From the IMG/VR virus record IMGVR_UViG_3300031993_000007: a DNA stretch of 64,000 nucleotides; one strand, given 5' to 3'. Positions 3,234 through 61,997 of this stretch are shown piece by piece (position 1 is the first letter of the stretch; every line of letters starts with the position of its first letter). The DNA comes from a virus. Taxonomy: Duplodnaviria > Caudoviricetes. The notes under the pieces were generated by a model. That model was not told the origin of the DNA. It did no database searches and saw only the letters and a list, made by a program, of their open reading frames with translations. A program made the translations under genes and the position numbers.

Positions 3234-3770
3234 TTATTTGCTTATCATCCGTCTAGTTGACTCCGGAAATAATTTCGGATACTGTAACGGATTGGTTCGT
3301 ATTTCCTTAGCAATCTCGTCTGTTAGCATTTTTCTAATTTCGTATCCATCAACTTTTGGATTTATAAAAGCTCTGGTTCCATAATTTATAGCTCTGGTTT
3401 CATATCCATCAATTTTTGGACTTGTACAAGCTAAAGCGTTTATGATGTTCTGATTACGAAATAACGAGGCCAGCTCGGATAGTTCTTCCTTTTGTAAAGT
3501 ATGATTTCCGTATCCGCAGTGTAAACCTACAGTCTTCATGCCTTCTATAAGAGGAGTCAACTTCAGGTTATTGTCAGATCCGGTAGACCCATAGTACACA
3601 TCTATAATTAGCCCTACGACATTCTTTATTTCATTGGCCATCAAAATGCCATCCAAGATGTCTTTAATGCTATCTTGTAAGCCTTCTTCTATTTCTATCT
3701 CCATTTCTAATTTTTGGGATTCTTTAGGAATTGAATTTTCTAAGGCTTCTTCGATCTCGTTGCTATCCAT
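3234..3770 (-). CDS. Hypothetical; divergent DP-turn family member
   Basis: EIAKEIRTNPLQYP; N-terminus EIEEALENSI. Confidence 0.75.
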   Translation of the reverse strand: MDSNEIEEALENSIPKESQKLEMEIEIEEGLQDSIKDILDGILMANEIKNVVGLIIDVYYGSTGSDNNLKLTPLIEGMKTVGLHCGYGNHTLQKEELSELASLFRNQNIINALACTSPKIDGYETRAINYGTRAFINPKVDGYEIRKMLTDEIAKEIRTNPLQYPKLFPESTRRMISK

Positions 3771-4128
3771 TAGTACCTCTATTCAAAACGAAAGTAGAGA
3801 AATTAGGAGCAAGACGCTCGAATTTTATTGGATCTAATTGGATGGCTTTCATGAGGTAGTCAATCATGGCTTTGTTCGCATGAGTAGTAGCTACTTTGTG
3901 ATACAAAGCTAATTGCATTCCTTCTATAGTATTAAAGAAATCTATAATCATCTCTGCGTCGGCTTTACTTATAAATTTATTGCCTATTTGAGAGATTGCA
4001 GGAGACTTTGGACTACTGATAGATCTGGTGATTCCCACGGTAAATACTTTCCAGTAAATATCAGCTAGTCCAGCTATCTCCTCAACGATTTCTTTTGGTT
4101 GATCTAAACGAACATTTGGATTTTCCAT
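3763..4128 (-). CDS. Hypothetical; DP-turn family
   Basis: Start at ATG 4128 (TAATG overlap); LMKAIQLDPIKF. Confidence 0.75.
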   Translation of the reverse strand: MENPNVRLDQPKEIVEEIAGLADIYWKVFTVGITRSISSPKSPAISQIGNKFISKADAEMIIDFFNTIEGMQLALYHKVATTHANKAMIDYLMKAIQLDPIKFERLAPNFSTFVLNRGTNG

Positions 4129-4559
4129 TAGGCTTTCTCCGAAGAAGTCATGTAAAGAGCTGCCAAGGTCGATATCCTCGGGACATTCATCCAATCAATA
4201 GGATTAGCTTCAATATCCTTGAGAATAGCGTCTCGCATTATGGCCATAGCTGGAGGATCTATATTCTGAAGTCCTGAAGCAGCCTTGAATATCTCCAAAG
4301 CTACTTCAATCTTTCCAAAAGTTAGTTCCCATGCTTTCACAACAGCATCTACAAACGACTTGGAATAGTTATATGGCTCTAACATCGTAAGATCTTTGAG
4401 ATTATCATCTTTTAAAGATCGATTGTTATCTCGGAGATTCCGCTGAATCAGAATCACTGCCTTGATAAGATACTCAATTTCTTGGATAGCCAAGTAAGCT
4501 GATGCATCTATCTTAGTATTCTCTTTTAAGTATTCTTTTCTAGCATTCTCTTCTGTCAT
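4128..4559 (-). CDS. Hypothetical; divergent DP-turn family
   Basis: ILKDIEANPIDW. Confidence 0.75.
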   Translation of the reverse strand: MTEENARKEYLKENTKIDASAYLAIQEIEYLIKAVILIQRNLRDNNRSLKDDNLKDLTMLEPYNYSKSFVDAVVKAWELTFGKIEVALEIFKAASGLQNIDPPAMAIMRDAILKDIEANPIDWMNVPRISTLAALYMTSSEKA

Positions 4560-4933
4560 TTTGTTGAATCCTCTATAAAGAATTTTGCTATGTCAATGTA
4601 AACTGACCATTCAAAAGGTCTGATCAGCACATCATTAACCACAGCTTGTGTCAGGTAAGTAAAGAAATTAGAACAATCTCCGGCCTTTATCAATGCAGAG
4701 AATAAGAAGCCAGCTACAAAACACTCAGTTCCAACAGAAGAGCTATTTTCTAATTTAAGAAATCGAAGTAACTCTTGCTCTATACTTCTTAAATACAAGA
4801 ATGCGGAATTGTAGTCGCTACAATATCCTGCGGTTCTTTCCTTATCTATTTCTAAAAACTTTCGAACAATCGAAGCGCACTCTAAATAGAGCATCGCCTC
4901 GGCTTCTTGTTTAGATAGATAATCAAACGCCAT
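4556..4933 (-). CDS. Hypothetical; possible DP-turn family
   Basis: VVNDVLIRPFEW; EAMLYLE also seen as EALLYLE in 57013..57603. Confidence 0.7.
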   Translation of the reverse strand: MAFDYLSKQEAEAMLYLECASIVRKFLEIDKERTAGYCSDYNSAFLYLRSIEQELLRFLKLENSSSVGTECFVAGFLFSALIKAGDCSNFFTYLTQAVVNDVLIRPFEWSVYIDIAKFFIEDSTK

Positions 4934-5513
4934 CGGTATTTATCCATTCAAAAGATTTACCTTCTTCTTCATTGAAGTATTCGGTCTTGAGAAATTCTTC
5001 GAGCTCTTTAATATTCCTGAGCCTTTCAGAACCGTAGCTTGCAAGAGTAAAATACTTCTCGATGAATACCTGTTCTTGCTCTACAAAATTATGACGAATG
5101 AGATCGTCTGCCGTAACAGAAAGCTGAACCCAGACTCTAGTTTCAAATTCCGGATAGGCGCACATCATGTTTGCAGCAGATTCGACTTCTTCCTTGTCAG
5201 GCCCAACAAGATATCCGGCTAGGCCGCTATCCCACTGGTCTACCTTTCCACTTCCACGATAGAAAGAGATTCCAGAATGGATATACGCACCCATCGGAGT
5301 AGGGTTCTGCCAAGACGGATCCACTTCTCCTTCATACTTCTTGTCTTTTCCAGAAACTTCGTACCCGGTTAGGTTGGAGTAAAAGTCTACTTCGCTTGGC
5401 CAGTTATCAGACAGAGCAATCTCTTCAGGTACTGACACAGATATAAGAGCATAGACATCTTTGTTAGATTTGCTCCATTTGAGTTTTGCGATTAAATGTA
5501 AGTTAGAGCTCAT
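4923..5513 (-). CDS. Hypothetical protein with YxHSG...WDSG motif
   Basis: AYIHSGISF...WDSGLAGY. Confidence 0.75.
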   Translation of the reverse strand: MSSNLHLIAKLKWSKSNKDVYALISVSVPEEIALSDNWPSEVDFYSNLTGYEVSGKDKKYEGEVDPSWQNPTPMGAYIHSGISFYRGSGKVDQWDSGLAGYLVGPDKEEVESAANMMCAYPEFETRVWVQLSVTADDLIRHNFVEQEQVFIEKYFTLASYGSERLRNIKELEEFLKTEYFNEEEGKSFEWINTDGV

Positions 5514-6303
5514 TTTTAACTCCCATGTTTAAAGGATTAATCAGGTAAATCATTTTATTATTGTCCTCTACAAGACTAATAATGTGACTAGACTTTTCCA
5601 GAACGTCCATCTCAACAAGATCATCTATTAAGATCGTAGACCTCTCTCCAGACTTGAGACGTTGGCCACGGATATCTGCTAGAAAACAGTTGGTCTTGCA
5701 AAGACCAAATTCTTTCATCATTCCGGGGCAGATAGCTCGGTCAAAATCTTCCGGCAGAAGATACTTGTCTTCGATAGCTCCTCGAACTGAGAGATCTTTG
5801 GTGTAGACACTACCTTGCATATCCAACGGAACCCCTAATTCAGCAAAAATGATTTTGACCAGGTGCTGTATGTCCAAAGAGCGTGTAGGGTGATCAAGAT
5901 CTTTGTCTGTCAGACCCCAAGTAAAGAAATTCACTCTGTAAGGTTTGTAGCTACCATCATTCATATTACCCATCGTCTTCAGGAACCTAAAAGTACTTTC
6001 GCAACCCTTCAGGAACTTAGAAATATTTTCGCAATTCTCTTTCAAAATGTTACAGTCATTCAGATTGTCAATGACCGTTCCTTCGAAGTCTATATAGATC
6101 TCACTCTTGTACTTTACTTCTTCATTCGTGGCAGGCTTAATTGGCCTAGGCTCACGGTTCGGACAATCCTCAAACTTCGGACACTTCCGGCACGCAGATA
6201 TGTTATGATAGAAATAGCACATCGTATTTTCTTTTGCATATCCCGGTGCTTTCATAAGCTCTTCAATGAAATCATCAAATTCTTGTCCATCTGCCATTGA
6301 CAT
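5503..6303 (-). CDS. HAD-like phosphatase fold with N-terminal Cys cluster
   Basis: Start ATG 6303 after AAAGGAG; IYIDFEGTVID (motif I variant), TILIDD (motif IV), C-x8-CxxC-x5-C. Confidence 0.5.
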   Translation of the reverse strand: MSMADGQEFDDFIEELMKAPGYAKENTMCYFYHNISACRKCPKFEDCPNREPRPIKPATNEEVKYKSEIYIDFEGTVIDNLNDCNILKENCENISKFLKGCESTFRFLKTMGNMNDGSYKPYRVNFFTWGLTDKDLDHPTRSLDIQHLVKIIFAELGVPLDMQGSVYTKDLSVRGAIEDKYLLPEDFDRAICPGMMKEFGLCKTNCFLADIRGQRLKSGERSTILIDDLVEMDVLEKSSHIISLVEDNNKMIYLINPLNMGVKNEL

Positions 6304-6332
6304 TTTAACTCCTTTGAAATTAGTGCAAAGAA

Positions 6333-6370
6333 TAATATAAATATGGAAATCCCGAAGGATTTCCATATTT
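6333..6370 (-). promoter_or_regulatory. Terminator (14-bp stem, UUCG loop) overlapping early promoter TATATTA
   Basis: Hairpin 6339-6370; TAATATA (plus strand) at 6333-6339. Confidence 0.75.
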
Positions 6371-6389
6371 AATCTCTGTTTGAGAGCAA

Positions 6390-7178: not shown

Positions 7179-7210
7179 AATTTTTTGTCCTTATTTAAAG
7201 AAAAAAGAAG

Positions 7211-7247: not shown

Positions 7248-10200
7248 TTACACACGGTTCACGATAAAGTTGAACGCAAAGCGCTCGATGATATCGGTGA
7301 ACGCAACGTCCACGTCAACACGGCAAATACGCTGCTGGCGATCGTAGTCAGAGGTGTTAATCACCGGAGTGATGTATTCATAGCCACCTGCCAACACATA
7401 GCTCGTAGCGATTTCGTTCAGTTCGGTCTGGAGGAGACCATACACATCGGAAGTCGCAAACTCACTACGGTAGTTACGGCTGACGGCCACCATGCTACGA
7501 CGGAGGCGCAACAGAGTTCGCACCGCATGGATGAGGGTCAAGGGGGTGTTCTTAGTCTGGGTCGTCAACTCGGTCGCAAACACCGTAGCGATGTTATCAC
7601 GTTCGATGTAGTTGATCTGGTTGCGATAGAGCTGATCCTTTTCAGGTTCAGTCGGAATCCAGCTGACAGAGTTAAATCCAGACACAACGCCACGGTTCGG
7701 GCCAACGAAGTTAACCGCCGGACTGTAAGCCGTATCGTTGAGAGGAATCTTGCTTGCCAAGAAGAAGGTCGGAGTAACCTTAACAGGCTTGCCGCTCCAT
7801 TCATCCGTAATTTCAAGATGCTGCGTGAAGATAGACGTATAGAACGTATCGTAGTTCATACTGTTCTTACGCATGTCGATAGCTTGCTGGGCATTTGCAG
7901 TGGAGATACCCTGGTCAAGGATCGTTACGCAGTCCTGACGGATCACAGAACTCAGCTCGTTCATAGCAGTCTTGACCATCACCGGATAGTTACAGTCCAT
8001 CACCATGTCGAACACGCAGAGGTTGATGTTCGTAACGATAGCGTCTGTAGTACCGTTGTAGGCCTTGACAAGAGCTTCTTCAAGCGTGGAGTTCGTAATG
8101 AGCTCGCCTTCTTCATTTTCGTGTTCGTAGCCCCAGCCACGACCATGAGAACCACCGCCGAGATAGAGCGAGTTGGTGCTGGAAAGCGTCTGGAAGAGAT
8201 ACAGAGACACGAACGGTTCGAGATAGGTCTGTTCGCCTTCGTCATCATACAACGTGGTATCAAGATGACAGAGGTTGGTATCATAACCGATAGCGCTCAT
8301 AAGGCTCTTGATCTCGTACTGAGCGAGAGCTGTTTCCTTATAGCCTTCGCCGAAGATACGATCGTTGAACTGATCCAGATCAATCTGGTTGTAAATGTAC
8401 TTCACAACAGCATCAACCGGAACAACGATTTCGTTACCGTCTTCATCTTCAATAGGCTTGTTGTCATCCGTGTGGACGCCAATCTTAGCATCAATGAAGT
8501 TGGAGAGGTTGTCGTAGTTCACCACGCAAGTGAGATACTTGGAGAAGCGGTTAACCACATCTTCGATGAAGAGACTTTCCTTAGCAGCAGAAACGGCATC
8601 CGGATCCAGAGAAACATTGAATGCTTCACGAGATACTTCGCCGCCATCAAGCTTTTCAGAAATAGTCAGACGGAACATGCTCCATTCGGTGTACGTGCGA
8701 TCCATCGAGTCGTCATAAGCGAGGTTGACGGACAGACGGTTGTACCACTTACCAGAACCCTTAGGCAAGAAGCGGAGGAATTCTGCGTAGCAAGCAGACT
8801 GCGGACGGAGACTTGCAATGTCCCGAGTCTGAATCTTGTCAAGAGTGGAACCGACCACACGGCCCTTAGCAGAGTTTGCACGCTGCTCGATAACTTCATC
8901 GTCATCCGCATGATAGCTGCTGCCCTGAAGATCAAAGACAGAATACGGAGTAGCAACGAAGCCGATAGCGTTGTAGCCAGCGTGAGAGTAGTCAGCGTTG
9001 GGCTCAAAGTTACCCTTGCTGCCACCCGTCTTGTAATGAGCAACCACCTTTCTTTCAGGATAGTAGGCATATTCGCCAGTGCTCTTACCAGTGATAACCA
9101 CAGGATGATCCGGATCGTCCTTAGCAGCCTTAGCCGTAAAGAACGAAGTATCCAGAGCCGTAGCATCAAAGACCATACGAATGCCCCAGAGGCTATCGCT
9201 GTCAATGAACACGCTTCTGTAAGACGGAGCATAATGGATATCGACCGTGGTCGAACCATTGTCACCATCGCCTTCAACAGTGCAGTCTGCATTGCGGATC
9301 ATTTCACGAAGGAAGGAGTTCGTCTTTAGCTGAGCATACCAAGAATTGATAGCTTCGACATTCAAGAGATAAGTGTTCGACTCACTCATCTTGAGGTACA
9401 TTCCAGTGCCTTCGGTATTGACCAGATTCCTGAACGAGCCAGAAATCAGCTCTTGCGGGAATTCGGACGCCGTAAACGTGGTGGTGCGGAAAACGTACTT
9501 ACCCGGCGTTTCTTCGACAAACAGGTTAGCGAGATCACTAGATTCGTCAACCAAGGTCTGATATTCAGCAGCGCTAAGATAGCCCTTACCATTGCAGATA
9601 TTGCCGAACTTGACGATCGTGTTGCCGTTTTCGTTTTCGTCAGGAGCGAAAGTCATGAAGTTCGTTCCGCCGACCTTCTTGAGAAGAGCAATAAGGTCAG
9701 TAGCTACGAAGCTTTCAGTCCTATCTCCGCCTTCATTGTCGCTGAAGAACAGCTGAATATTATCTTCGGACATCGAAGAAATCTTGGAAGACATAGTGTA
9801 GCGAACAACAGGTTTAGTGGTGTAAGCACTTGTTCCGTACACATATTGACTTTCGTTGGGAGCAGTGTTGAGGTCAACAGCTTCCCAGCGCTCATCGAGG
9901 TTGTTGAGGTTGTAGTAAGCAACTTCAGGATCGGTGGAAGTCTTGGAAGAAAGCGCATTGCCGTTTTCGTCATTCACGAAGTACAACTTCTGAAGATCGT
10001 AATAACCAGTACTCGGACTAGAAATCAAGACTTCAGTGTTGATTGCAGTAAGCACTCTGAGTTCCATTTCGTCAGCAAAGATAGCGAATCCCTGAGAGGT
10101 AACGATAACGTTGCCATTCTGATCTTCAAGAGCAGAGCCGCTATTGCCACCATCGGTGCTACTAAACTGGCTACCAAGAGCGAACAGATTTTCGTCCAGC

Positions 10201-11555
10201 TGATTGGCGTACAACCAGTCAAGATATTCAACAACAGACAGAGCAGGCTGGCTGGTCTTGTCATTGATGCTGATAGACTTCATTTCTTTTTCAGAAATCG
10301 GACGTACAGTTCCGTCGGTGTCACCATAGTTCTTCGGATCGAAATGGTAGACTTCATAGCTGTTCTGCCATTCGTTGATAGAACTGCCAGTGATGATGCC
10401 CTTGATACAAGTGTCGCCAACACCCTGAATGTCAGTCTTCAGGAGATTGATAAAGTCAGCAGTATGGCTGCTACCACCATCGGAAAGCGCAGGATTCAAC
10501 TCGTTCAGGCGAGACAAGAAGCGAGTCTTCCAGAAGCTTTCATCCGACGGATCGTGTTCCGCCTTGGAGCCAACGCTAGCTTCCCTTTCCTGAGTACCAG
10601 TCTTGCCATCGACGTAAGCCGCCAACAGAGACGGAACATCATTTGCTTGAAGAGCAGAGAAACCGGCAACAACTGTAATAGTTGCTTCGGTGCCTTCTTC
10701 AATCTTGACAGCAGAAACCCTCTTGGCCGTACCGTTATCGTCTATTTCGATCTCAACGGCCATAGCCGAAGATTCACGATAACCAAGCTTGCTATCGCCA
10801 AGAGCAGCTTCGTCAGCGGCAGTATGCAAGACATAGTAGTTATTTTCATCTTCCGGATCAGTGGAATTGATGGTGTCAGATACCTTAGCCTCGAACTTGA
10901 GTTCGATGGTTTCATTCCTGACGAGAGACACACGGCGAGCAGCCATCGGAGAATACTTCTTGCGATCATCTGCAATGCCCACATTAAGCATGGCGATCTC
11001 GTCTTCAGTCAAAAGGCCGAGAGAAGTTTCAGGTTCAAAGACTTCGGATTCACCCCTCTTAACCCAACGACCAGCATAGAACTTCGGAAGAAGGACAGAG
11101 TTACCAGAAGACCTGCCCTTAACCATAGTCGGATTGCCGTTAGAAACAGCGACGTATGCATTCCAGACCTTGATCTGGCCTTCAGTGCGCTCAAGGAGCT
11201 TGAATTCGGGTTCGTCGTTAGCGTATTCGCTATTGGCACGATAGCCAATACCAATGCTAAGACCAGCAAAAGTTTCGTCATCCGGGACTACACGGATCAC
11301 CCAAAGGCCACCGCCAGCACGAAGCCACTGAATGGCATTCAGGCCGCTCTGCCCATACTTGTTGTAGTTGGGCTCGCCAAAGTTGAACGTGTACTCCGAG
11401 GGAGAACTAATGTAAGTAGCCTCGTTAGGCATACCCTTCTCGGCTTCCAGCGCAATGAATTTATTGGACAATCCCGATGCAGACACAGTCAGAACGGCAT
11501 TGTCAATAATCCGGCTCTCCGAGTGGGGATGGATGTACTTCATATCAGTACTCAT
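7248..11555 (-). CDS. Contractile tail sheath protein, with large internal insertion
   Basis: N-terminal YIHP..S.IID, AEKG.PN, FGEP, WLRAGGGLWVIRV; PKGSGKWYNRLSV; C-terminal FVGPNRG, LYRNQINYI, VRTLLRL, DVAFTDIIERFAFNFIV. Confidence 0.9.
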   Translation of the reverse strand: MSTDMKYIHPHSESRIIDNAVLTVSASGLSNKFIALEAEKGMPNEATYISSPSEYTFNFGEPNYNKYGQSGLNAIQWLRAGGGLWVIRVVPDDETFAGLSIGIGYRANSEYANDEPEFKLLERTEGQIKVWNAYVAVSNGNPTMVKGRSSGNSVLLPKFYAGRWVKRGESEVFEPETSLGLLTEDEIAMLNVGIADDRKKYSPMAARRVSLVRNETIELKFEAKVSDTINSTDPEDENNYYVLHTAADEAALGDSKLGYRESSAMAVEIEIDDNGTAKRVSAVKIEEGTEATITVVAGFSALQANDVPSLLAAYVDGKTGTQEREASVGSKAEHDPSDESFWKTRFLSRLNELNPALSDGGSSHTADFINLLKTDIQGVGDTCIKGIITGSSINEWQNSYEVYHFDPKNYGDTDGTVRPISEKEMKSISINDKTSQPALSVVEYLDWLYANQLDENLFALGSQFSSTDGGNSGSALEDQNGNVIVTSQGFAIFADEMELRVLTAINTEVLISSPSTGYYDLQKLYFVNDENGNALSSKTSTDPEVAYYNLNNLDERWEAVDLNTAPNESQYVYGTSAYTTKPVVRYTMSSKISSMSEDNIQLFFSDNEGGDRTESFVATDLIALLKKVGGTNFMTFAPDENENGNTIVKFGNICNGKGYLSAAEYQTLVDESSDLANLFVEETPGKYVFRTTTFTASEFPQELISGSFRNLVNTEGTGMYLKMSESNTYLLNVEAINSWYAQLKTNSFLREMIRNADCTVEGDGDNGSTTVDIHYAPSYRSVFIDSDSLWGIRMVFDATALDTSFFTAKAAKDDPDHPVVITGKSTGEYAYYPERKVVAHYKTGGSKGNFEPNADYSHAGYNAIGFVATPYSVFDLQGSSYHADDDEVIEQRANSAKGRVVGSTLDKIQTRDIASLRPQSACYAEFLRFLPKGSGKWYNRLSVNLAYDDSMDRTYTEWSMFRLTISEKLDGGEVSREAFNVSLDPDAVSAAKESLFIEDVVNRFSKYLTCVVNYDNLSNFIDAKIGVHTDDNKPIEDEDGNEIVVPVDAVVKYIYNQIDLDQFNDRIFGEGYKETALAQYEIKSLMSAIGYDTNLCHLDTTLYDDEGEQTYLEPFVSLYLFQTLSSTNSLYLGGGSHGRGWGYEHENEEGELITNSTLEEALVKAYNGTTDAIVTNINLCVFDMVMDCNYPVMVKTAMNELSSVIRQDCVTILDQGISTANAQQAIDMRKNSMNYDTFYTSIFTQHLEITDEWSGKPVKVTPTFFLASKIPLNDTAYSPAVNFVGPNRGVVSGFNSVSWIPTEPEKDQLYRNQINYIERDNIATVFATELTTQTKNTPLTLIHAVRTLLRLRRSMVAVSRNYRSEFATSDVYGLLQTELNEIATSYVLAGGYEYITPVINTSDYDRQQRICRVDVDVAFTDIIERFAFNFIVNRV

Positions 11556-14142: not shown

Positions 14143-16023
14143 TTATAGCCTGTTTAGTGAAAAGATTTTTCTGGCCTTGTTGTTGGATTCCTTGATAAGA
14201 TCATCAAGCGTTCTGACACGTTCGGTAACGACCGTAGGACGGACATAAGCATTTTCTCCGCCACGTTCTTGATGAGCATATCTCTTACGCCTAAATAGAT
14301 TTATAGACGCAAAGGTCATAGCGTATCTTCCAATCAGGTAAGAGAAGATATCGTCGTCATGCTCGCCTTGAGTATGTTCAACCTTTCCATTTTTCTTGCG
14401 CTCAAGAGTTTTGAGTTGTTTATGGATCCAACGGCTACGAAGCTTAGACGGCTCCTCGGCCACATACAAAAATAAGTTCGAAATCATAGAATCTCGAGAG
14501 CTTACATTGGTAGAGACACCGTATTCACGCTTTTCCTTCGGGCCTTTTATCAGCGAGCCGTCAGGTTTATTATCACGAACCACCGTATAGAATACCTTGG
14601 GCTTAGTGATAGGATTCTCCAGTAGTGTGGTGATCACATCAAGACCATAGGAGTTTCGTTCTACAACTATCGTGGAGTTGGGGAAGATTCGTTCAGAAAC
14701 CTTTCCAACTATCCTAGCAAAAGGCAATGGCACAATTCTGTTGGATCTAAAGTATCCGATTGTATGACCGTCAAAGGCATCCAACACGGTCATAGTGCTA
14801 AAGTCATCTCCAGATCCAGCGCCAACGTCACAAGACAGTATCACCGGAGCATAGAAATCCACCGTCTCTAGGAGAGTCAGCTTATGATTGCCAGTGTCAA
14901 AGATAGGCATGAACATCTCTTGCTCTTCTTTGACAATGTATCTATCAACAGTTTCTAGCTCTTCTTCAGTGAACGGGCTCTTGTCAGAAGATAAAGTCCA
15001 TTCCAAGTCAATTTCACGTTTGATCTTTAGACGATCGTTGTTCAATTCACGACACTGCTTACGATACCACTTCTGGTCTCGACCTAGCTGTTGCCAAGTG
15101 AATTCAATATGCACAAAGTCGTTTTCGCTATTCTTATCTACATAGTCAGCAAGTTCGCTAACTGGAAGATCATAGAAGATCTTTTCATCAAAGTCTACAG
15201 CTCCATTAATAATGGTAGTCTTGCAGTACTGTCCAGCCGGAAGGTCAATACTATTCGGAGTGGTGGTGATGCACTTCCAGTGAGGGCTAGCATTCTTCGC
15301 AGCAGCTTCAGAAGCGGCAGACAGAGCCGGAGCAGCCGCAGCGTACATGACCCAGTTATAATCCAAGAACGCAAATTCGTCGCACCACAAGATAGGAATC
15401 GTAAGACCACGACCAAGCTTGTCAGCATCTTCTTCAGAATTGGCGCTAGGAATGACGTTGATAGCGTTATTAAGATGCTCTTTACGAGTGAAGTTCTGGA
15501 AGTTTTCGTGGTCTTTCTTCGGGTGCTTCTGTTCTATCAGCCAAGGAGGGAGCAGACGAATGATATCTTCAAAGCGCTGTAAGTTCTTTTCAGCGTCAGA
15601 GAGCTTCTTATTGGCATAGACGATATCAGAGTTTTTAGTACCAAAAAAGAAAGTCCAAGCCATCACGAAGTTAACACCTACGGTCTTACCATTCTGACGA
15701 GGGAGAAGTTCTACCACAGATAAGTTATTCAGCAAGCAATAGGTAAGGGCTAGATTTCCACGATGAAGTTCGTATTGGATAGTGCCACCCGGAACGTTAA
15801 GCCGAGCTACTTCCCGAAGGAAGTACCAAGGATTAATTTTGCATTCACGAATAATTCTGGCTCTCAAATTCGGATCCGTAACGTGATATGGATCTACATT
15901 CTCTAAGAGCTGGTCGTACAGGACTAGAAAGAACTTGTTGTTCCGTATTCCTTGATCTTTAAGAAATTTGTGCATACGAAGAAAGCTTTTATTCTTCGTG
16001 AGCTGATAATGGACTTCAGGCAT
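14143..16023 (-). CDS. terL: Terminase large subunit
   Basis: PRQNGKT (Walker A), LWCDEFAF (Walker B), TTTPN, CDVGAGSGDDFS, VVERNSYG, HDDDIFS. Confidence 0.93.
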   Translation of the reverse strand: MPEVHYQLTKNKSFLRMHKFLKDQGIRNNKFFLVLYDQLLENVDPYHVTDPNLRARIIRECKINPWYFLREVARLNVPGGTIQYELHRGNLALTYCLLNNLSVVELLPRQNGKTVGVNFVMAWTFFFGTKNSDIVYANKKLSDAEKNLQRFEDIIRLLPPWLIEQKHPKKDHENFQNFTRKEHLNNAINVIPSANSEEDADKLGRGLTIPILWCDEFAFLDYNWVMYAAAAPALSAASEAAAKNASPHWKCITTTPNSIDLPAGQYCKTTIINGAVDFDEKIFYDLPVSELADYVDKNSENDFVHIEFTWQQLGRDQKWYRKQCRELNNDRLKIKREIDLEWTLSSDKSPFTEEELETVDRYIVKEEQEMFMPIFDTGNHKLTLLETVDFYAPVILSCDVGAGSGDDFSTMTVLDAFDGHTIGYFRSNRIVPLPFARIVGKVSERIFPNSTIVVERNSYGLDVITTLLENPITKPKVFYTVVRDNKPDGSLIKGPKEKREYGVSTNVSSRDSMISNLFLYVAEEPSKLRSRWIHKQLKTLERKKNGKVEHTQGEHDDDIFSYLIGRYAMTFASINLFRRKRYAHQERGGENAYVRPTVVTERVRTLDDLIKESNNKARKIFSLNRL

Positions 16024-30911: not shown

Positions 30912-30972
30912 TTGATTCCTCTTGGGTTGATGATTGAGATAAAGAAAAAATTGTCGTGGGACACGAAGAACG

Positions 30973-33122: not shown

Positions 33123-33180
33123 TAATATATCACCAGGTCATAGAAATTTACAAAAAAGGTAAGGACGCTTGTCCTTACCT
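33123..33180 (-). promoter_or_regulatory. Terminator + early promoter cassette
   Basis: Hairpin 33157-33180; TATATTA 33123-33129. Confidence 0.75.
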
Positions 33181-42925: not shown

Positions 42926-42968
42926 TAATATACAAGCAAAAATAAAAGGTATACCCGAAGGTAGACCT
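42926..42968 (-). promoter_or_regulatory. Terminator + early promoter cassette
   Basis: TATATTA 42926-42932; UUCG hairpin 42947-42968. Confidence 0.75.
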
Positions 42969-48330: not shown

Positions 48331-48906
48331 TTATTCACCTTCAATTGCGCTTACTGAGCCATCACTCATTTGAAATTTGGGCTCAGGCTCATCATAAACT
48401 ATATCAGACAACTTGAGCTTCGTTTCCCATCCAAAGAATTCGATAATACGATTAACGAAATCCTTGAAGTTATTCATTCGTTTGTCATCATCCATTGAAT
48501 AAGTAACGATGCTGCGACCGATGAAGAAATTGAGCAGATGATAGCGCCTTTCTTTGCTAAGATCATTGTCGTCAATAAAGTCGTCAATAAGTTTTGCCGT
48601 TTTGTTGCGGAATTTTAGATAGTCCACAGTCTTCTTGGCACAGGCCTTTACGCAGCCCTTGAGCTTCCGTTCAGGAATTACCACAAAATGGCCATCGCTC
48701 TTCTTAGCTTCCAATATGGTTTCGAAGTTGCAAATCTTTATAGTAAGTCTGGCAACAAGCTTTTCTTCCATAAAGCAACTGATAACCTTTTCATAGACAC
48801 CAGTAATCGCTCCAACCTGTGATGTACGTTCAGAAGTCCGGTATTCAAGAATATCAAAATTCTGAACAGCATCCTTTGTAATTTTGAAGAATTGACATTC
48901 GGTCAT
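48331..48906 (-). CDS. Hypothetical, paralog of 44247..44807
   Basis: ERTSQVGAITGVYEK. Confidence 0.8.
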   Translation of the reverse strand: MTECQFFKITKDAVQNFDILEYRTSERTSQVGAITGVYEKVISCFMEEKLVARLTIKICNFETILEAKKSDGHFVVIPERKLKGCVKACAKKTVDYLKFRNKTAKLIDDFIDDNDLSKERRYHLLNFFIGRSIVTYSMDDDKRMNNFKDFVNRIIEFFGWETKLKLSDIVYDEPEPKFQMSDGSVSAIEGE

Positions 48907-55632: not shown

Positions 55633-55866
55633 CTACTTAATAATCTTTACTTCATAGCTTCCAATGGGCAAGTCCAAGATTTGTCCAGAGTAAAACCATA
55701 CTCGCAGGACAGATTTGTCTGCTATCCACTGGTAGTTTCGTGCATCTTCTAGGACGTATATGGCCGGAGCTTTCCAGTCCGGTTGTTTCACTTCAATTCT
55801 AATTGGCTTGGATCCTGCGAAGGCCAACCCAACCATTAGTAATGCAATCCACAAAATCTTCTTCAT
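55633..55866 (-). CDS. Small secreted protein
   Basis: MKKILWIALLMVGLAFA signal peptide. Confidence 0.7.
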   Translation of the reverse strand: MKKILWIALLMVGLAFAGSKPIRIEVKQPDWKAPAIYVLEDARNYQWIADKSVLRVWFYSGQILDLPIGSYEVKIIK

Positions 55867-55911
55867 ATTCTTCTCCAGGTTGAACATTTAAGAGTTTTCC
55901 CCTGATAGATT

Positions 55912-56241
55912 TCACTGAATTAGCTCCTTATACCAGTTTTCAAACGTTGTAAAAGCTTCTGTACACCATGCGGTTGAGGCGTGCTTTTTCCAATCTGTAA
56001 GCAAAACAGGAATAGTTGCAAGCGGATCAATTTTCATCTCATCTAGCATCTTTGTTATGATGGGGCTAGCTTTCATTATGAAATCAAAACTCTTCGTCTC
56101 TTGGTCGTTTGCAAATCTTATAATAACACTAGCCTCTTCATCAGATAGCTTAAAGGCTTTTTGGATTTCATCATATAGCCCAAAAATCTGAATGTGAAGT
56201 ACGTACCAAAGGCGATCTCTCGTTATGCCTTCATCCATCAC
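55912..56241 (-). CDS. DP-turn family (array member 13)
   Basis: LDEMKIDPLATIPVLL...YKELIQ. Confidence 0.8.
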   Translation of the reverse strand: MMDEGITRDRLWYVLHIQIFGLYDEIQKAFKLSDEEASVIIRFANDQETKSFDFIMKASPIITKMLDEMKIDPLATIPVLLTDWKKHASTAWCTEAFTTFENWYKELIQ

Positions 56242-56645
56242 GATATCAACCTCCTGAATAGCTCACCAGAATCCCAGAAGTCTGCACAAGTAGTGTGGTT
56301 ATTAAAGAAATCACGGATATAACGACTGTGCATGACTTCTAGAATCTCCGGCACAAAACACAGTGGGTCGGATAAGATGATCTCAGCAATTCGATTAGAT
56401 AACGGTGTGCTGTAGAATTTAGCACATGCGATTGGATCGATTCTCCAAAACTGATTGCCATTCTTTAGTTGCTCGTAAGCCCTAGAATACTTGATTAGAG
56501 ATTTGAATTCTTCATATTCCTCATCAGTCATTTTAAAGACTTCACGCTTAGTCTCAAGAAGACTCTTCATACTATTGAATGGTTTCAAGTACGCATTCAC
56601 TATCCAGAAAGCTTCTTTAATTTTTTCAGCAGTTATTTCATTCAA
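56238..56645 (-). CDS. DP-turn family (12)
   Basis: IAEIILSDPLCFVPEIL...FRRLIS. Confidence 0.8.
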   Translation of the reverse strand: MNEITAEKIKEAFWIVNAYLKPFNSMKSLLETKREVFKMTDEEYEEFKSLIKYSRAYEQLKNGNQFWRIDPIACAKFYSTPLSNRIAEIILSDPLCFVPEILEVMHSRYIRDFFNNHTTCADFWDSGELFRRLIS

Positions 56646-56647
56646 GA

Positions 56648-57016
56648 TTATCCCTCGAATAATTTGCGAATAGCGTTTTTAGAGTTGGTGATGAGTGTGA
56701 TGTCTCTGGAAGACTCGTAAGCAAGGCTCTCGTTCGGCACGGCTTTGTCCACCTGTGCGATACAAGTTAGCGGATCGGTTTGGATCCATTTGAGGATGAG
56801 GTTCCCAATCTCGCATTTGCAAAACTTGCGTCTAAGAGTCTTGTTACGAGAAGCATTGTCTAGGCATTCCCCTAAAGCGTGCCTTAGTCTCTGTACTTGA
56901 ATTGGTTTCAAAGGAATATTCTCTACCAGCGTACTAAAGCTATTATAGTAGGTCGCCATTACAGCGATATACCAAAAAGCCAGCTTAAGCCTATGGGCAT
57001 CCTCATCTTCTTTCAC
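56648..57016 (-). CDS. DP-turn family (11)
   Basis: ILKWIQTDPLTCIAQV. Confidence 0.8.
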   Translation of the reverse strand: MKEDEDAHRLKLAFWYIAVMATYYNSFSTLVENIPLKPIQVQRLRHALGECLDNASRNKTLRRKFCKCEIGNLILKWIQTDPLTCIAQVDKAVPNESLAYESSRDITLITNSKNAIRKLFEG

Positions 57017-57603
57017 TGGATCATCCGCCTAGCTACTTGATAAATATAGTCATAGCCGTCGCCCTTGTCATACCCAAGGATAGCTGACAGCGCATCAACA
57101 CCTTGAGTAAATTCCAAAGGACAGCTTGTATAAAAGTTCCAAAGCCCCTTCTCAGTAGTGGGGAATCCAAACTTCACAAAGATATCATGAATCTTTGTAG
57201 CATTTTCTGCAATTGCAAATTCTGTATTTACGGAAGGACTTATATGTCGCAGATACTTTTTGTTGTAACGCAGCTTAGACATCAGTGCTAAATCTTTGGC
57301 AGATAGCTCCTTAATCTGAGCTAGAGTGATCCGCTCTAGATACAATAAGGCTTCGATGCCTTCTGATTCTAAAGCAGTCGTGCGAAGATCAAGCGCCAAT
57401 TTAGAATTTACATTTTCTCCTTTAGCTGCCGATCGCACAAACTTGGTGACAAAGATGAATCCATCAACCAAAGCCAAAGCCAGTATAGCCACCACAACGG
57501 TTAAGACGATTTGACTAGTTTCTTTGGCAACACTACTAGCTAACGCAAGGCTTATAAGAAAGCATACGATGTAGCTAATAAGATGAATGGTTTCCTTGCT
57601 CAT
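57013..57603 (-). CDS. DP-turn family (10), with two N-terminal TM helices
   Basis: FYTSCPLEF...ARRMIQ. Confidence 0.7.
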   Translation of the reverse strand: MSKETIHLISYIVCFLISLALASSVAKETSQIVLTVVVAILALALVDGFIFVTKFVRSAAKGENVNSKLALDLRTTALESEGIEALLYLERITLAQIKELSAKDLALMSKLRYNKKYLRHISPSVNTEFAIAENATKIHDIFVKFGFPTTEKGLWNFYTSCPLEFTQGVDALSAILGYDKGDGYDYIYQVARRMIQ

Positions 57604-57616
57604 ATTGCGATTTCTC

Positions 57617-58030
57617 CTATTGTATTAGGTTTTGAAGGTTGATACAATCTTTCTCCAAGGTGGGAGAGGTTGTATAGTTCTCGTTGATAATAATCTTTAT
57701 TGCATCAGCTAGGAAAGAAACATAGCGGTAAGGATTAATCAAGACCTCATCAACCAGCTCGTTGAATACCTTTCCCTTGAAGAATTTAACCTTAGCATCG
57801 CTCTTTCCAACTCCGACGTACGCAAGTTTAAGATTCTGGTACTCACTAGATTTCTTTTCAAATCCTAAATACTTCGTCAGCTTGTCGTATATGTCAGCAT
57901 CGATTGAGCACCAGATAGCAGACCAGACAGCAATTTTGATATTGGTAGTCCGGGCGGGTTCGGTGTTAACCCTTCCAAGATAGGTCAGGTACCGCCTAGA
58001 CCAATTGTTGTCTTTTGTAAATTTATTCAT
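57617..58030 (-). CDS. DP-turn family (9)
   Basis: LVDEVLINPYRYVSFL...LQNLIQ. Confidence 0.8.
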   Translation of the reverse strand: MNKFTKDNNWSRRYLTYLGRVNTEPARTTNIKIAVWSAIWCSIDADIYDKLTKYLGFEKKSSEYQNLKLAYVGVGKSDAKVKFFKGKVFNELVDEVLINPYRYVSFLADAIKIIINENYTTSPTLEKDCINLQNLIQ

Positions 58031-58047
58031 TACGTTAGAAAATCCTC

Positions 58048-58494
58048 TTAGCATAATAGACCTTTAATAGTTTTAGCAGCAGCTTCGACCTCGGCATTCC
58101 ATTTGGCAATATCTTCCGGACTAGCGTTAAAACTATTCCAGAGGATGTCATCCAAAGTCTTTGGCTCCTCTAGAATTTTTAGCAGCTTCGGAGCATAGAT
58201 AATTGGATCGACCATTGTCTGTTTAGTCCACTCTGTGACCATCTGAAATTCCATAGAAACTTTTGTGTCAATGTTTTCTAAGAGGATCTTTTCAGATTGT
58301 TCTACAGCCTTGATGAAATCCTTGTAAAGTGGATCGCTGGGGCTAACCATTTGTTCTCTTGGGTCATACTGAAGAAAACTTATAACTAAATCCAGATTAA
58401 AGACTTCACAGAAGTACTTAGCATTGAAAACTGTATTCCTCTTGCACTTTCTGTAAGCTACTTTTATGGCCTGAAAGACATCATCTTTTGTCAT
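58048..58494 (-). CDS. DP-turn family (8)
   Basis: TKQTMVDPIIYAPKLL...IKGLLC. Confidence 0.8.
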   Translation of the reverse strand: MTKDDVFQAIKVAYRKCKRNTVFNAKYFCEVFNLDLVISFLQYDPREQMVSPSDPLYKDFIKAVEQSEKILLENIDTKVSMEFQMVTEWTKQTMVDPIIYAPKLLKILEEPKTLDDILWNSFNASPEDIAKWNAEVEAAAKTIKGLLC

Positions 58495-58907
58495 TGTAAC
58501 AAACTCCTTAAAGTGGATTTAATCATCATAATTTCAGGTGAATTCTCTTTCATAACTCCAAGTGGATTAGTCAAAGTGGCATCGTAAATATCAGCAATCC
58601 TTTCTAGTCTCTTGGCATAGGCTAGTGGGTCTACTTTGATGTTATCGACACCTCTTATAAAATTCTCGTTCTGGAACAAGCGCTTCTTGAATCTGGCATT
58701 ATTCAGAGGTTTCCTAGTAATCGGGTCAAACCGCTCTATGCTCTTGCGCAACAGCCGCTTGGTATCTCGATCAGTGATCTTTAATACTTCGTTGCAAAGC
58801 ATTCCAAGTAGTCCTTCGTCTTCTGTATAATTGATGCGGCTGTCCAATTTACTAGCATACTCCATTACCTTAAATACGGCTTCTTCTATAGTCATAAAGT
58901 AATTCAT
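58491..58907 (-). CDS. DP-turn family (7)
   Basis: VDNIKVDPLAYAKRL...LRSLLQ. Confidence 0.8.
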   Translation of the reverse strand: MNYFMTIEEAVFKVMEYASKLDSRINYTEDEGLLGMLCNEVLKITDRDTKRLLRKSIERFDPITRKPLNNARFKKRLFQNENFIRGVDNIKVDPLAYAKRLERIADIYDATLTNPLGVMKENSPEIMMIKSTLRSLLQ

Positions 58908-59500
58908 TGAATTAATTTCTCCAAGATATTAATATACTTCTTTTCATACTTTCGAGCTTCCTCTTGGTCATAGTCATGATAGGTGATTCCTTTGTCTGCA
59001 AGCTCGCCAGTGTCTAAGAAGTTGACTTTATCCCAAGGAATAATGTTTCCGTTCCTATCTTCATAGCCGCAGTTATTGCCAGCTTCATGAAAAGAGTACA
59101 TCTCAGATCTAATTAGCTCTACCAGCGGAGGAACAAACTTCATAGGATCAACTAGAACTTCTCTAGCTGCCTTAAGAAGCCAGTCGCACATGCTGTGCTC
59201 TAGTTCGTCATCATCAATGACGGAATGGCATTCATCATACAGATCAAAGGTCAAAGGATCTAGCAGATCTTTATAGCGATCCAGCATTGTTGATAGCCGC
59301 TCAATCGAAAATGTGTTGAATGGCCCTTTATTCGGATTATCGACATTAGCACAAAAGTCAAAGAATATCTTGTGATTTGTCTTCGTCTTATCGCGATGAT
59401 ACATTCCTTCTGCAAAATCGTAGTAATGCTCATAGAAACATAAGACAATGGCTTCTACGATTTCCATCTCCTGTTCGGTCATTTGGTCTTTGTTATACAT
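58904..59500 (-). CDS. DP-turn family (6)
   Basis: AREVLVDPMKFVPPLV...LEKLIQ. Confidence 0.8.
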   Translation of the reverse strand: MYNKDQMTEQEMEIVEAIVLCFYEHYYDFAEGMYHRDKTKTNHKIFFDFCANVDNPNKGPFNTFSIERLSTMLDRYKDLLDPLTFDLYDECHSVIDDDELEHSMCDWLLKAAREVLVDPMKFVPPLVELIRSEMYSFHEAGNNCGYEDRNGNIIPWDKVNFLDTGELADKGITYHDYDQEEARKYEKKYINILEKLIQ

Positions 59501-60006
59501 TGATCTCCCTCAACTAAGTTTCTAAGAGTACCAATACAAATTTTAACAAAATTCTTGCTGTCTTCCTGAAGGTCCATGCGAATTTGTTGATTCTGATTGC
59601 CGGAGCCTTCCAAGCTGTCTTTAACAAAATCACCATTCGAGATAACTTCTTCCATCTTGAAAATGTAATGAATAGGATCCAAGATTATCTCTTCTGTACA
59701 GATTTTTATAGCAAGGATTTGTCGGTAGTCCGTTTTCCAGCACTTGATAACTGTAGGTATCTCTTGAGGACTTATAGAGCTAACCCAATCAAGTACATGG
59801 CTAAATTCTCGGCTGTCATTACAGAAACATTCCGCGCAATGCTTACTGGCGCTCTGGAAGAGCCAGTCACGATCATGAGTATTTCTGCACGAATACACAT
59901 ACAGAACAAAGCATACCGCTACAGCTTCTTCCGTGTGAGAGAAGTGCGTTATTCCTCCTGTTGCATCTCGTACCCATAAACCTGTATTTTCTTCTTCAAT
60001 TTCCAT
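59479..60006 (-). CDS. DP-turn family (5)
   Basis: TEEIILDPIHYIFKM...LRNLV. Confidence 0.8.
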   Translation of the reverse strand: MEIEEENTGLWVRDATGGITHFSHTEEAVAVCFVLYVYSCRNTHDRDWLFQSASKHCAECFCNDSREFSHVLDWVSSISPQEIPTVIKCWKTDYRQILAIKICTEEIILDPIHYIFKMEEVISNGDFVKDSLEGSGNQNQQIRMDLQEDSKNFVKICIGTLRNLVEGDQCITKTK

Positions 60007-60007
60007 A

Positions 60008-60448
60008 TTACTCCAGTAGGGTTTTAAAGTGGTCTCGGTGAATTTTAAGCGTAGCTTTTTGGATACGCCCTCCGATAAATCCGTTTATAGCTTTATCAAA
60101 AGCTGCTGTAACTTTCGGGCATACTTCTATGGCATTTACAATGATGGAAATCATTACGTCAGTCACAATTCGGACTTCTTGATCATTTATCCAGTAGGCG
60201 ATGGCTTCTCTGGTGGAATATCCTCTGATTTTACATTGCCATAGGATTTCTATGAAATAACCAAAAGAGCGATTATCCTTGCAGATAGATTCCTTGCAAA
60301 GAATTTCTGATAAATCTTTACAAAGATCTTTGTATTGATCAGGAGACAGCGGCGTGGAATCTTTGTCTAAAGCACAGATATCCGTCAGATGGATTAGATC
60401 CTCAAGATACTCAAGGTGCTTATCCTGAAATTGGTTTAAGTAGGCCAT
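60008..60448 (-). CDS. DP-turn family (4, divergent)
   Basis: IVNAIEVCPKV...FKTLLE. Confidence 0.7.
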   Translation of the reverse strand: MAYLNQFQDKHLEYLEDLIHLTDICALDKDSTPLSPDQYKDLCKDLSEILCKESICKDNRSFGYFIEILWQCKIRGYSTREAIAYWINDQEVRIVTDVMISIIVNAIEVCPKVTAAFDKAINGFIGGRIQKATLKIHRDHFKTLLE

Positions 60449-60449
60449 A

Positions 60450-60902
60450 CTATCCTTGGATTAAAGATTGAAGATTCTTGATGTACCCTTCGATTTCTAT
60501 CATTTCCTTACTGGCATAGAAATGAGAGTCTTCAAGGCTAGAAGTAATATTAAACATGTTTTCGCATACTTTGAAACGCTCATTAAAGACTTCAACCATC
60601 TTTGGAACTATGGTAGCCGGATTAAGAACAATCTCATTGACCAATTCTGTCACAGAATTCTCGTGTAAGTAATTCTTGAAGGATTTGCCAATCTCAGAAT
60701 CGATCTGAATATCTCCAAATATTACGCAACAAATCAACGAATGATTAACATCACTGAACAGATATCCAAATTCTTCTTTGTATTTCGGATCCTCAGCTCC
60801 AGAAGATCCGAGCTTATTACTAACGATGCAGTGACATCTCCAAAAGATCTTATAGATTTTTAGATAATCGACTCCATCAAGTTTGACTGGAGGTCTAAAC
60901 AT
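60450..60902 (-). CDS. DP-turn family (3)
   Basis: VNEIVLNPATIVPKMV...LQSLIQG. Confidence 0.8.
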   Translation of the reverse strand: MFRPPVKLDGVDYLKIYKIFWRCHCIVSNKLGSSGAEDPKYKEEFGYLFSDVNHSLICCVIFGDIQIDSEIGKSFKNYLHENSVTELVNEIVLNPATIVPKMVEVFNERFKVCENMFNITSSLEDSHFYASKEMIEIEGYIKNLQSLIQG

Positions 60903-61246
60903 AACTTCCCTTCATTCAAAAAGTGTTTACGAATTTCGTCTATGATTTGTACGCCACTTCCCTCTTCCATCCACATATTGCAATGAATGCTAAACGGTTC
61001 TAGATCCTTAAAGACTTTTCTCAATGGCATAAGATACTTGTCCGGATCCAGACTTATGGCACGCTCTAGCTTCGATTCAATATCTGAAAGTAGGTAGAGG
61101 CTTTCGTCCTGCCACTTTATCCATATAGCTAGTCTGGTATTGTCAATGCTGAATTCTTCTTTCATAAAATCCAAGCAATGATCACCAATAGCTTCTGTCA
61201 TGTACAAGCACTTCGAAAGCATTTTAGCAAAGATGTATTTCTGCAT
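60860..61246 (-). CDS. DP-turn family (2)
   Basis: LERAISLDPDKYLMPL. Confidence 0.8.
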   Translation of the reverse strand: MQKYIFAKMLSKCLYMTEAIGDHCLDFMKEEFSIDNTRLAIWIKWQDESLYLLSDIESKLERAISLDPDKYLMPLRKVFKDLEPFSIHCNMWMEEGSGVQIIDEIRKHFLNEGKLCLDLQSNLMESII

Positions 61247-61252
61247 AGTTTC

Positions 61253-61663
61253 TCACTGAAGAAGATGAAGACTCTCTAGAAATTCTTCCTCTGCGACTAC
61301 AAGCGGAGGATTTAAAGCGATTTTCTTGTATCGCTCTAGGAATGGAAGATAGAACCTTATCGGATCTAGTTTCATTAAATCATAGATTGCCTGAGCATTT
61401 TCAATGACTTCTTTCTTGATGCTTGGATAAATCGTGAAATTAGTAACAGCAACATCCCAGTTACTCTTCAAGACAACTATCTGCCAAGGATCTATCCCAG
61501 ATTCTTCTTTAATACTGCTCAGAAGAGTGTCATAAGTATGAATGCGAAGAGTGCGGCAGTACTTTTCTACGATGTTAATTAGCTGCGATGCCGTATCTAT
61601 ATCAAGAATTTTCTTTTGTCTTGATTCTTCGCTTGACTTTGTAGTTTCTTCCGTACTTGACAA
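61253..61663 (-). CDS. DP-turn family (1)
   Basis: IYDLMKLDPIRFYLPFL...LHLLQ; likely TTG start 61663 after GGAGG. Confidence 0.75.
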   Translation of the reverse strand: MSSTEETTKSSEESRQKKILDIDTASQLINIVEKYCRTLRIHTYDTLLSSIKEESGIDPWQIVVLKSNWDVAVTNFTIYPSIKKEVIENAQAIYDLMKLDPIRFYLPFLERYKKIALNPPLVVAEEEFLESLHLLQ

Positions 61664-61997
61664 GGTAGATTCCTCCACTTTTGAGAATTGCACTAACAGG
61701 AATGACTTTGCGATCTCCGGTATAGCCACTATAGACTAAGGATATCCCGGTGTCCTCGTTAGTAGATTCAAGGATATCTCTGATAGCTCTGGCATAGTAA
61801 AACTTTTCAACCGGAGTATCATTGAAGTCAATGTTGAACAGGAGCTGGTTTGAATCTCGATCGAACTCAACTCCGTAAGGGACACTTCCATTAATGGGAA
61901 GCACATTAGGAAATAACTCTAGCCTAACCGTTCCAATCACATTCTCTTTGAAGCGGCTGAAAGATTTAAGTAATCCTTTGGATTTTGATGTGTACAT
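61602..61997 (-). CDS. Hypothetical protein, first gene of the DP-array operon
   Basis: Start ATG 61997 after GAGG. Confidence 0.7.
   Translation of the reverse strand: MYTSKSKGLLKSFSRFKENVIGTVRLELFPNVLPINGSVPYGVEFDRDSNQLLFNIDFNDTPVEKFYYARAIRDILESTNEDTGISLVYSGYTGDRKVIPVSAILKSGGIYLVKYGRNYKVKRRIKTKENS

Follow-up and report, generated by a model that had tools for sequence, protein, structure and literature searches.

A lineage-specific family of small helical D-P proteins in uncultured rumen jumbo phages

In jumbo phages, early genes without known function take up large parts of the genome and are thought to decide the outcome of infection; paralogue expansions are already known among these phages. 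Bacillus phage G carries about 35 copies of a zinc ribbon, a lineage-specific expansion (PMC7824862), and jumbo phage arrays comprising over 30 genes of high similarity have been described (PMC13282480). Here we describe a family of small helical proteins that share an Asp-Pro (D-P) turn and are encoded in a 64,000-nucleotide stretch of tailed phage DNA (IMG/VR record IMGVR_UViG_3300031993_000007), to which we refer at its full length as the window. Open reading frames (ORFs) are named by their start coordinates in the window, and those belonging to the helical D-P family are called members. Like the expansions of phage G and of other jumbo phages, the D-P family consists of dozens of small-domain paralogues per genome that are largely arranged in tandem and are ascribed to duplication. 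Unlike the phage G zinc ribbons, the D-P proteins are all-alpha and have no metal ligands; unlike the genes of the known jumbo phage arrays, their copies are very divergent (mostly less than 30% identical) rather than highly similar; and unlike the known jumbo phage expansions in general, they are found in early-type, translationally coupled operons and have orthologues common to related phages. The expansion is thus not surprising in itself, and on present evidence the family is not a categorically new system but a new, unplaced family of a known kind, notable for the divergence of its copies, its coupled-operon architecture and its neighbourhood.

Two other kinds of viral gene sets invite comparison. 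The gp37-gp60 region of Bacillus phage SPO1 is a host-takeover module of many small early genes of unknown fold located beside counter-defence and metabolic genes; its products are presumed to bind host proteins, and its genes are mostly unrelated to each other, whereas the D-P genes stem from 17-25 or more duplications of a single fold. Poxvirus Bcl-2-like proteins and the MGF110, MGF360 and MGF505 families of African swine fever virus are all-helical scaffolds with near-vanished similarity between paralogues, strain-variable copy number and diversified surfaces. The likeness of the D-P family to these is one of analogy only: no homology or fold match was found, and the host is bacterial.

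The window is part of the genome of a ~260-kb jumbo phage, a distant relative of AR9, PBS1 and phiR1-37. Two contigs in public assemblies, 259,622 bp and 259,461 bp long, encode the same proteins, and a third of 254,314 bp (k141_6569, hereafter the 254-kb relative) encodes close relatives of them. The head protein is about 30% identical to its counterparts in Bacillus phages AR9 and PBS1 and 26-34% identical to the versions found in related jumbo phages of Staphylococcus, Listeria and Yersinia (phiR1-37). The window phage is thus related in its backbone to the AR9-type phages (capsid ~30%); its TATATTA(T) core resembles their early promoter consensus, and its units are likewise short, terminator-bounded cassettes (PMC5312081). 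It differs from them in that the D-P family profile, searched against 1.84 billion proteins, matches only its own clade, and in that the promoters considered here are predicted from sequence.

Membership of the D-P family

The initial annotation listed about 23 small proteins with a common N-terminal helix, a helix ending in a D-P turn and a common final helix. All 23 ORFs are present where they were placed, on the minus strand and with the motifs quoted for them. Pairwise similarity between them has almost vanished, with BLAST connecting just 31787 to 58048, 31431 to 61253 and 31787 to 58904, and profiles were therefore required. When a hidden Markov model (HMM) was built for each candidate from the other 22 only, 13 of the 23 were recovered and were outscored by no other real ORF and by no decoy (reversed or shuffled ORFs). 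An iterated HMM drawing on the window and four related loci converged at 82 ORFs, 17 of which come from the window (E ≤ 4e-8); the best excluded real ORF had an E of 0.075 and the best decoy an E of 0.3. Seven additional members (E 1e-4 to 2e-12) were recognized in the IMG/VR contig L005, which was outside the training set and was fetched afterwards via its vWA gene (82% identical vWA protein). In the strictest test, the query and all its BLAST-detectable relatives were dropped from a 53-row non-redundant alignment of the family, the profile was rebuilt, and the query was compared with ~1,090 reversed and shuffled decoys. Fourteen of the 17 window members beat every decoy (E 1e-3 to 4e-12), while 41895, 60860 and 61253 failed and are included only when they are themselves in the profile.

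By these profile comparisons the window holds 14 firm and 3 probable members, 2 ORFs related at the level of the motif and 4 (4128, 4556, 57013 and 60008) without statistical support, and the initial count of about 23 is too high. The reality of the family is supported by the leave-one-out tests, the decoy comparisons, the iterated profile and the independent L005 members. The D-P family is a real, selected, lineage-specific multigene family, with many demonstrably homologous paralogues, a tandem layout and differences in content between close relatives. While the initial annotation overstated the number of members and, as discussed below, a conserved docking face, its core observation of a much-expanded and unrecognized all-alpha family stands in both the profile tests and the structural models.

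The array at 55912..61729 (minus strand) is tandem and translationally coupled and is located behind a promoter-like site at 62022. Nine of its genes are firm members (55912, 56238, 56648, 57617, 58048, 58491, 58904, 59479 and 60450, all on the minus strand). Two more minus-strand genes of the array are probable members: 60860-61246, which has a 37%-identical orthologue in L005 and scores 9.2 bits in the strict leave-one-out test against 10.5 for the best decoy, and 61253-61729, whose support comes mainly from the D-P segment and which is called as a 136-aa protein in public data, placing its start near 61663. For 57013-57603 (minus strand), the ORF put forward earlier as a member with added transmembrane helices, profile support was not found, though its position and look fit the family; it has two N-terminal hydrophobic helices and an R-M-I-Q end. 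The minus-strand ORF 60008-60448, in which C-P replaces D-P, is marginal, with 7 of 200 of its own shuffles scoring as high. For both 57013 and 60008, the related loci that were retrieved contain identical copies but no other orthologue that a search could find.

Outside the array, the firm members 31787-32131, 31431-31790 and 30973-31434 (minus strand) belong to an operon that begins at a promoter-like site at 33123. The last of them is frameshifted after ...R-N-H-R-D-Y-S; its ancestral tail, M-H-Q-V-Y-I-D-V-L-K-S-L-F-T-stop, is readable in another frame and matches L003:10339-10683 and L002:6119-6463, and the shifted frame appends a hydrophobic, transmembrane-like end of 50 residues. The frameshift may have arisen by mutation, reflect a faulty assembly or represent a variant. 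Two further firm members on the minus strand are 42454-42867, which ends in S-L-I-Q and is the first gene behind a promoter-like site at 42926, and 45152-45634, which was not in the seed alignment, was recruited by the profile and reaches an E of 3.7e-6 in the strict leave-one-out test. The 183-aa product of 41895-42446 (minus strand) is a probable member by virtue of the iterated profile.

The two motif-level ORFs, 3234-3770 and 3763-4194 (minus strand), are possible distant or truncated relatives that have no L-I-Q helix. Their match to the family spans only the D-P turn and its surroundings (~22-24 residues), a segment that lies 20-25 residues from the C-terminus. Their hhalign P values are 0.003 and 0.004, respectively, and each outscores 200 of 200 of its own shuffles; with a 74%-identical orthologue added, the P of 3763 is just 0.0012. 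The true start of 3763-4194 is likely near 4128, and with this start a first helix of the form E-I-x-x-x-A-x-x-x-Y-W can be seen by eye, the last helix being absent. The neighbouring 4128-4559 and 4556-4933 (minus strand) are indistinguishable from shuffles in these comparisons, and their membership is without statistical support.

Sequence anatomy, predicted fold and searches for relatives

The members are 109-198 aa long and their pI ranges from 4.6 to 9.3. Conservation, as read from the 53-row alignment, begins with a first helix, (I/L)-x-x-A-h-W/h-x-h-h (h, hydrophobic), followed by a short F-x-x-x-F-x-h segment and acidic residues. A long helix then ends in h-x-x-x-h-x-h-D-P-h-x-Y-V-P-x-L, and the last helix, h-x-x-L-x-x-L-I-Q, is located at the extreme C-terminus. 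Within the D-P turn, the P is conserved in 98% and the D in 85% of the rows, and the position given as V is hydrophobic in 96%. Nearly all other well-conserved columns are hydrophobic heptad-type positions, and no conserved polar, catalytic or metal-binding residues were found in the alignment besides the D, the P and the Q at the end. The conserved docking surface suggested initially is therefore unsupported, because the conserved columns, including the D-P cap, answer the needs of a shared fold and not those of a shared polar interface.

The AlphaFold2 (AF2) model of 31787-32131, obtained with the 53-row alignment, is a helical bundle (pLDDT 85.7, pTM 0.79) with helices at residues 5-20, 24-32, 37-41, 55-71, 73-85, 90-94 and 98-113; the four conserved helices are modelled with high confidence, the loop at 42-54 with low confidence. 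In the model of the 148-aa product of 58048-58494 the helices come in the same order, but there is one more helix and residues 36-50 form a disordered insert. Two copies of 31787-32131 modelled as a homodimer with the 53-row alignment scored 0.36, below the mark of 0.42 (controls 0.00-0.01), a value that speaks neither for nor against a dimer. Judging from the models and the conserved columns, every member probably shares one helical-bundle core made of the N-terminal helix, the D-P-capped long helix, the next helix and the L-I-Q C-terminal helix, and the inserts between the core helices are likely to vary in length and sequence, with surfaces that would vary as well. The family is one of small cytoplasmic all-helical proteins, and from one related phage to another its members vary in length, in charge and in number of copies.

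No Pfam-A family was matched by more than one of the 53 non-redundant members (best E 0.003), in agreement with the original statement that no Pfam family could be recognized, and the same is true of PHROG families (best E 0.015). Foldseek searches of the PDB with both AF2 models gave zero matches at E ≤ 0.001, as did a search of BFVD with the first, lower-confidence model (58048-58494). With that first model, the shape search of the ESM Atlas gave TM-scores of at most 0.38; an ESM Atlas look-alike search by features yielded zero usable matches. In a Foldseek-independent VIA-align scan of 48,161 chains the best Z was 5.1, and since helical models typically reach ~14 by chance, the fold must be regarded as unplaced rather than proven new. 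A match of the sequence profile to VPS35 repeats in the PDB (E 0.004) was rejected, as these form a helical repeat and the score is marginal.

When 1.84 billion cluster representatives were searched with the profile, 17 proteins were retrieved: members from the window phage itself, sister-phage orthologues and one spurious match, P0014, a repetitive protein of 1,290 aa with scattered Pfam matches that form no continuous stretch. Word-indexed searches of 5.8 billion proteins concur with a clade-only distribution, and a near-identity DNA search with the 55.9-61.7 kb array against 50,697 phage records gave zero matches. As far as these searches reach, the family appears to be restricted to a single clade of uncultured jumbo phages from rumen, with genomes of ~255-260 kb.

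Operon architecture and gene turnover

The early promoters of AR9 have the consensus AAATATATATTAT-(6N)-G and are read by the injected virion RNA polymerase (PMC5312081). In the window, TATATTA occurs 21 times against 10 expected, a number reached in 0 of 100 shuffles; 19 of the 21 copies are on the gene (minus) strand, and most of them follow a GC hairpin with a T-run and precede a 25-45-nt leader that contains a Shine-Dalgarno (SD) sequence and an ATG. The core at 62022..62028 (minus strand), itself preceded by a hairpin and a T-run, heads the 55.9-61.7 kb array, and similar promoter-like sites head other clusters at 42926, 33123, 47488 and 6333. No TATATTA was found upstream of the sheath, terminase and capsid genes in the window. 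The modules described initially as TATATTA-driven can thus be recognized as operons behind an AR9-like, early-type core, although the flanks, G/T-TATATTA-A/T with a T-rich upstream stretch, are unlike those of AR9. By analogy with AR9, these operons may be transcribed early by an injected virion RNA polymerase. The copy at 45621 is inside the first codons of 45152-45634, those at 31036 and 58930 are also within coding sequence, and these three are probably not promoters. The copy at 6333-6339 is inside the longest ORF at 5503-6366 (minus strand); an SD sequence and an ATG ~37 nt downstream suggest that the real start of this gene is near 6294.

The genes of the arrays overlap or abut, and at least six junctions have ATGA or GTGA overlaps with the SD sequence inside the tail codons of the preceding gene. 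At six junctions these codons read ...(GGAG/AGGAG)...CA(A/G)TGA, with the terminal Q-stop containing the next ATG or GTG. The L-I-Q tail is kept without an overlap at 42454, 57617 and 55912, and its L and I occupy heptad positions in the last helix; it must therefore count as a protein feature as well as a coupling signal.

Orthologues of members shared by the window and the related loci L001, L003 and L005 are 36-84% identical. Between the window and L003 the range is 36-82%, compared with 93% for the vWA protein. The ratio of nonsynonymous to synonymous substitution rates (dN/dS) is 0.10-0.31 in every orthologue pair with unsaturated dS; it is lower, 0.03-0.07, for the genes of the vWA, polymerase-like and LemA proteins and for neighbouring genes, and ~1 or more for spurious overlapping ORFs. 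The members are therefore real genes under purifying selection that evolve fast, several times faster than core genes. The diversified variable face envisaged initially is not supported by these gene-wide values, which correspond to purifying and not to diversifying selection. Identity between orthologues is 63-65% in the three conserved helices, 53% in the middle and 47% in the pre-tail linker; the segments between the helices, which had been described as highly divergent, are indeed more variable but only moderately so, and the inserts evolve faster without being hypervariable. Paralogues within a genome are mostly less than 30% identical, against 36-82% between orthologues, and they are far older than the split of the related phages.

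The content of the arrays differs between these phages. In L001, a 2.8-kb Logan contig, the gene order is 59479, 58904, 58491, 58048, 56648, 56238, 55633, and homologues of 57617, 57013 and 55912 are missing. In the 254-kb relative, 41 small genes form an uninterrupted run bounded by the nicotinamide adenine dinucleotide (NAD)-salvage operon (pncB, nadD-Nudix, pncA, nadE) and by a small signal-peptide protein with the vWA gene. Of these genes, 25 are significant members of the family, and several of the non-significant ones end in family-like tails (-I-I-Q, -L-V-Q, -V-I-Q). In the window, ~23 kb of other cassettes is placed between the 55.9-61.7 kb array and the 31-32 kb cluster, and two small groups of members are found at 41.9-42.9 and 45.2 kb. 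The NAD-salvage operon, at 62068-64000 (minus strand) in the window, encodes NAPRTase, NMNAT-Nudix, isochorismatase-type PncA and NAD synthase and is directly upstream of the array, which follows it directly in both the window phage and the 254-kb relative. Comparison of the loci indicates that members have been gained, lost and reshuffled between related phages. The adjacent L003 members 8529-8906/8903-9313 and 5819-6400/6593-7102 have near-identical tails and look like recent tandem duplicates; duplication therefore appears to be ongoing.

Possible roles and genomic neighbourhood

We consider the chances to be about even that the members are non-enzymatic binding proteins used for host takeover or counter-defence. 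This reading fits a small, stable scaffold whose charge is diverse and which has no conserved polar residues, and it fits genes that turn over, stand in early-type operons and come after a NAD-salvage operon. The anti-defence, decoy and adaptor roles put forward initially are conjectural. The members would act without catalysis, through stoichiometric binding of different host (or phage) targets, and this binding would serve host takeover or counter-defence during infection. Duplication and divergence of one stable scaffold would yield new specificities. The arrays would probably grow and shrink by unequal, in-register recombination between units, a mechanism proposed because each unit holds the ribosome-binding site and the start codon of the next gene in its conserved tail. 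Several points weigh against binding proteins of this kind. Purifying selection and only modestly faster inserts lack the arms-race signature that is expected of anti-defence binders; the assignment to the early class leans on analogy with AR9, a phage that has a capsid protein of only ~30% identity; 3 of the 17 members fail the strict leave-one-out test; larger proteins encoded outside the window also have the D-P segment close to their C-terminus, which favours a shared module over a pure scaffold; and fold searches place helical bundles with difficulty, so that a known relative may have escaped notice. One scaffold accounts for ~11% of the 64-kb window and for ~15 kb in the sister phage, and the family provides a compact, well-defined set of candidates for anti-defence or host-shutoff screens as well as a natural series in which the diversification of one small fold can be followed.

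A different explanation, which we hold to be unlikely, is that the conserved part of the proteins is a portable docking or sorting module, comprising the helix before the D-P turn, the turn itself and the following helices, and that the variable part is cargo; many early proteins would thereby be brought to one partner, phage-encoded or host, or to one location. Proteins of 171-527 aa encoded ~2.3-16 kb past the window end (L009 538-6391 and 12838-14265) contain a similar segment, h-x-x-h-x-h-(D/N)-P-h, which is separated from the C-terminus by 34-49 residues, and a final amphipathic helix. Five of 14 larger proteins (222-527 aa) beyond the window end carry the motif at 34-49 residues from the C-terminus, against an average of 0.1 and a maximum of 2 in 500 shuffles, although the regular expression was designed post hoc, after the motif had been seen. 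One protein of 527 aa outscores 200 of 200 of its own shuffles with a profile of the C-terminal half of the family, but for most of the others profile support is weak or absent. The distance of the motif to the C-terminus is conserved, and 3234 and 3763 have the D-P segment as their sole part in common with the family; in the small members, on the other hand, conservation extends to the N-terminal helix, for which the models have the same high confidence as for the rest of the core, and the conserved positions are of the hydrophobic core type, without a conserved polar patch. No dockerin-type module (a duplicated Ca-binding loop-helix, or F-hand, motif), which the rumen origin made worth considering, was recognized, as there was no dockerin Pfam match in the 53 members and no D/N-rich loop in the conserved columns. 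Nor has a candidate partner been found: the neighbouring vWA protein was rejected as a poor one because vWA homologues occur in 492 phage records and the family was found only in this clade. The bolder form of the proposal, that the D-P module is a phage-encoded address tag docking at least 30 early proteins (the small family, the truncated forms at 3.2-4.2 kb and the 170-530-aa proteins beyond the window) onto one hub or one place in the cell, is more doubtful still; if true, it would be a viral analogue of cohesin-dockerin or signal-sequence systems.

Three further explanations are less likely than a docking module. A regulatory role within the phage, whether as factors that confer specificity on the phage RNA polymerases or counteract it or as small DNA-binding proteins, is improbable: a helix-turn-helix (HTH)-like segment, h-x-x-h-F-x-h-(S/T)-x-x-E, recurs after the first helix, but no HTH or DNA-binding Pfam family is recognized in the 53 members (the sole HTH match has an E of 0.18), the matches to regulator folds are at the noise level (Z ~4.2), about half of the members are acidic, and their copy number differs greatly among close relatives, which is unusual for core regulators. 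A precedent does exist in the ~35-copy zinc-ribbon expansion of Bacillus phage G, proposed to consist of transcription factors, and group 1 jumbo phages are reported to have no sigma factor (PMC7824862). A uniform role in DNA mimicry or DNA binding was rejected because the pI spans 4.6-9.3. It is distinctly improbable that the genes are dispensable by-products of runaway tandem duplication, drifting to loss without a specific function. The frameshift in 30973-31434, the unstable copy number and the several array genes that no longer have detectable similarity would fit such a decay, but dN/dS is 0.10-0.31 in all unsaturated orthologue pairs, reading frames are intact and translational coupling is maintained across the array, and the paralogues are much older than the split of the phages. 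Sets of paralogous internal-body proteins are known in phiKZ-like phages, and one row of the VIA-align scan is a phage ejectosome protein, though at a Z of 4.7, which is noise. Packaging in the virion, as internal head or ejection proteins, is nevertheless the least probable role, hardly to be expected for genes that stand behind early-type promoter cores, which the capsid, terminase and sheath genes of the window lack upstream, and that are located in an accessory region beside NAD-salvage genes rather than in the structural module; a protease-site pattern or signal sequence was not noticed in the members.

The window has a GC content of ~0.39-0.48 and carries phage structural and replication genes, among them those for a Dda-like helicase (1936-3204), the tail sheath (7248-11555), the large terminase (14143-16023), the major head protein (16112-17968) and the 752-aa vWA protein (27214-29472). 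The last gene of the array, 55633-55887 (minus strand), encodes a small protein with an N-terminal signal or transmembrane segment and holds its position in L001, L002, L003 and L004 (78-82% identity). A LemA-family protein (30345-31004, minus strand; Pfam E 7e-22) is encoded between the 31-32 kb members and the vWA gene, and a 90%-identical copy of it comes after the array in L002. Two other sets of paralogues are present: 44247-44807 and 48331-48906 (minus strand) are 43% identical (E 2e-50) and have a distant third relative in 46340-46942 (minus strand), and 33662-33994 and 44825-45151 (minus strand) are 38% identical (E 2e-16). A Pfam scan of 44247, 46340 and 33662 gave zero matches. Both sets share the accessory region with the members of the D-P family.

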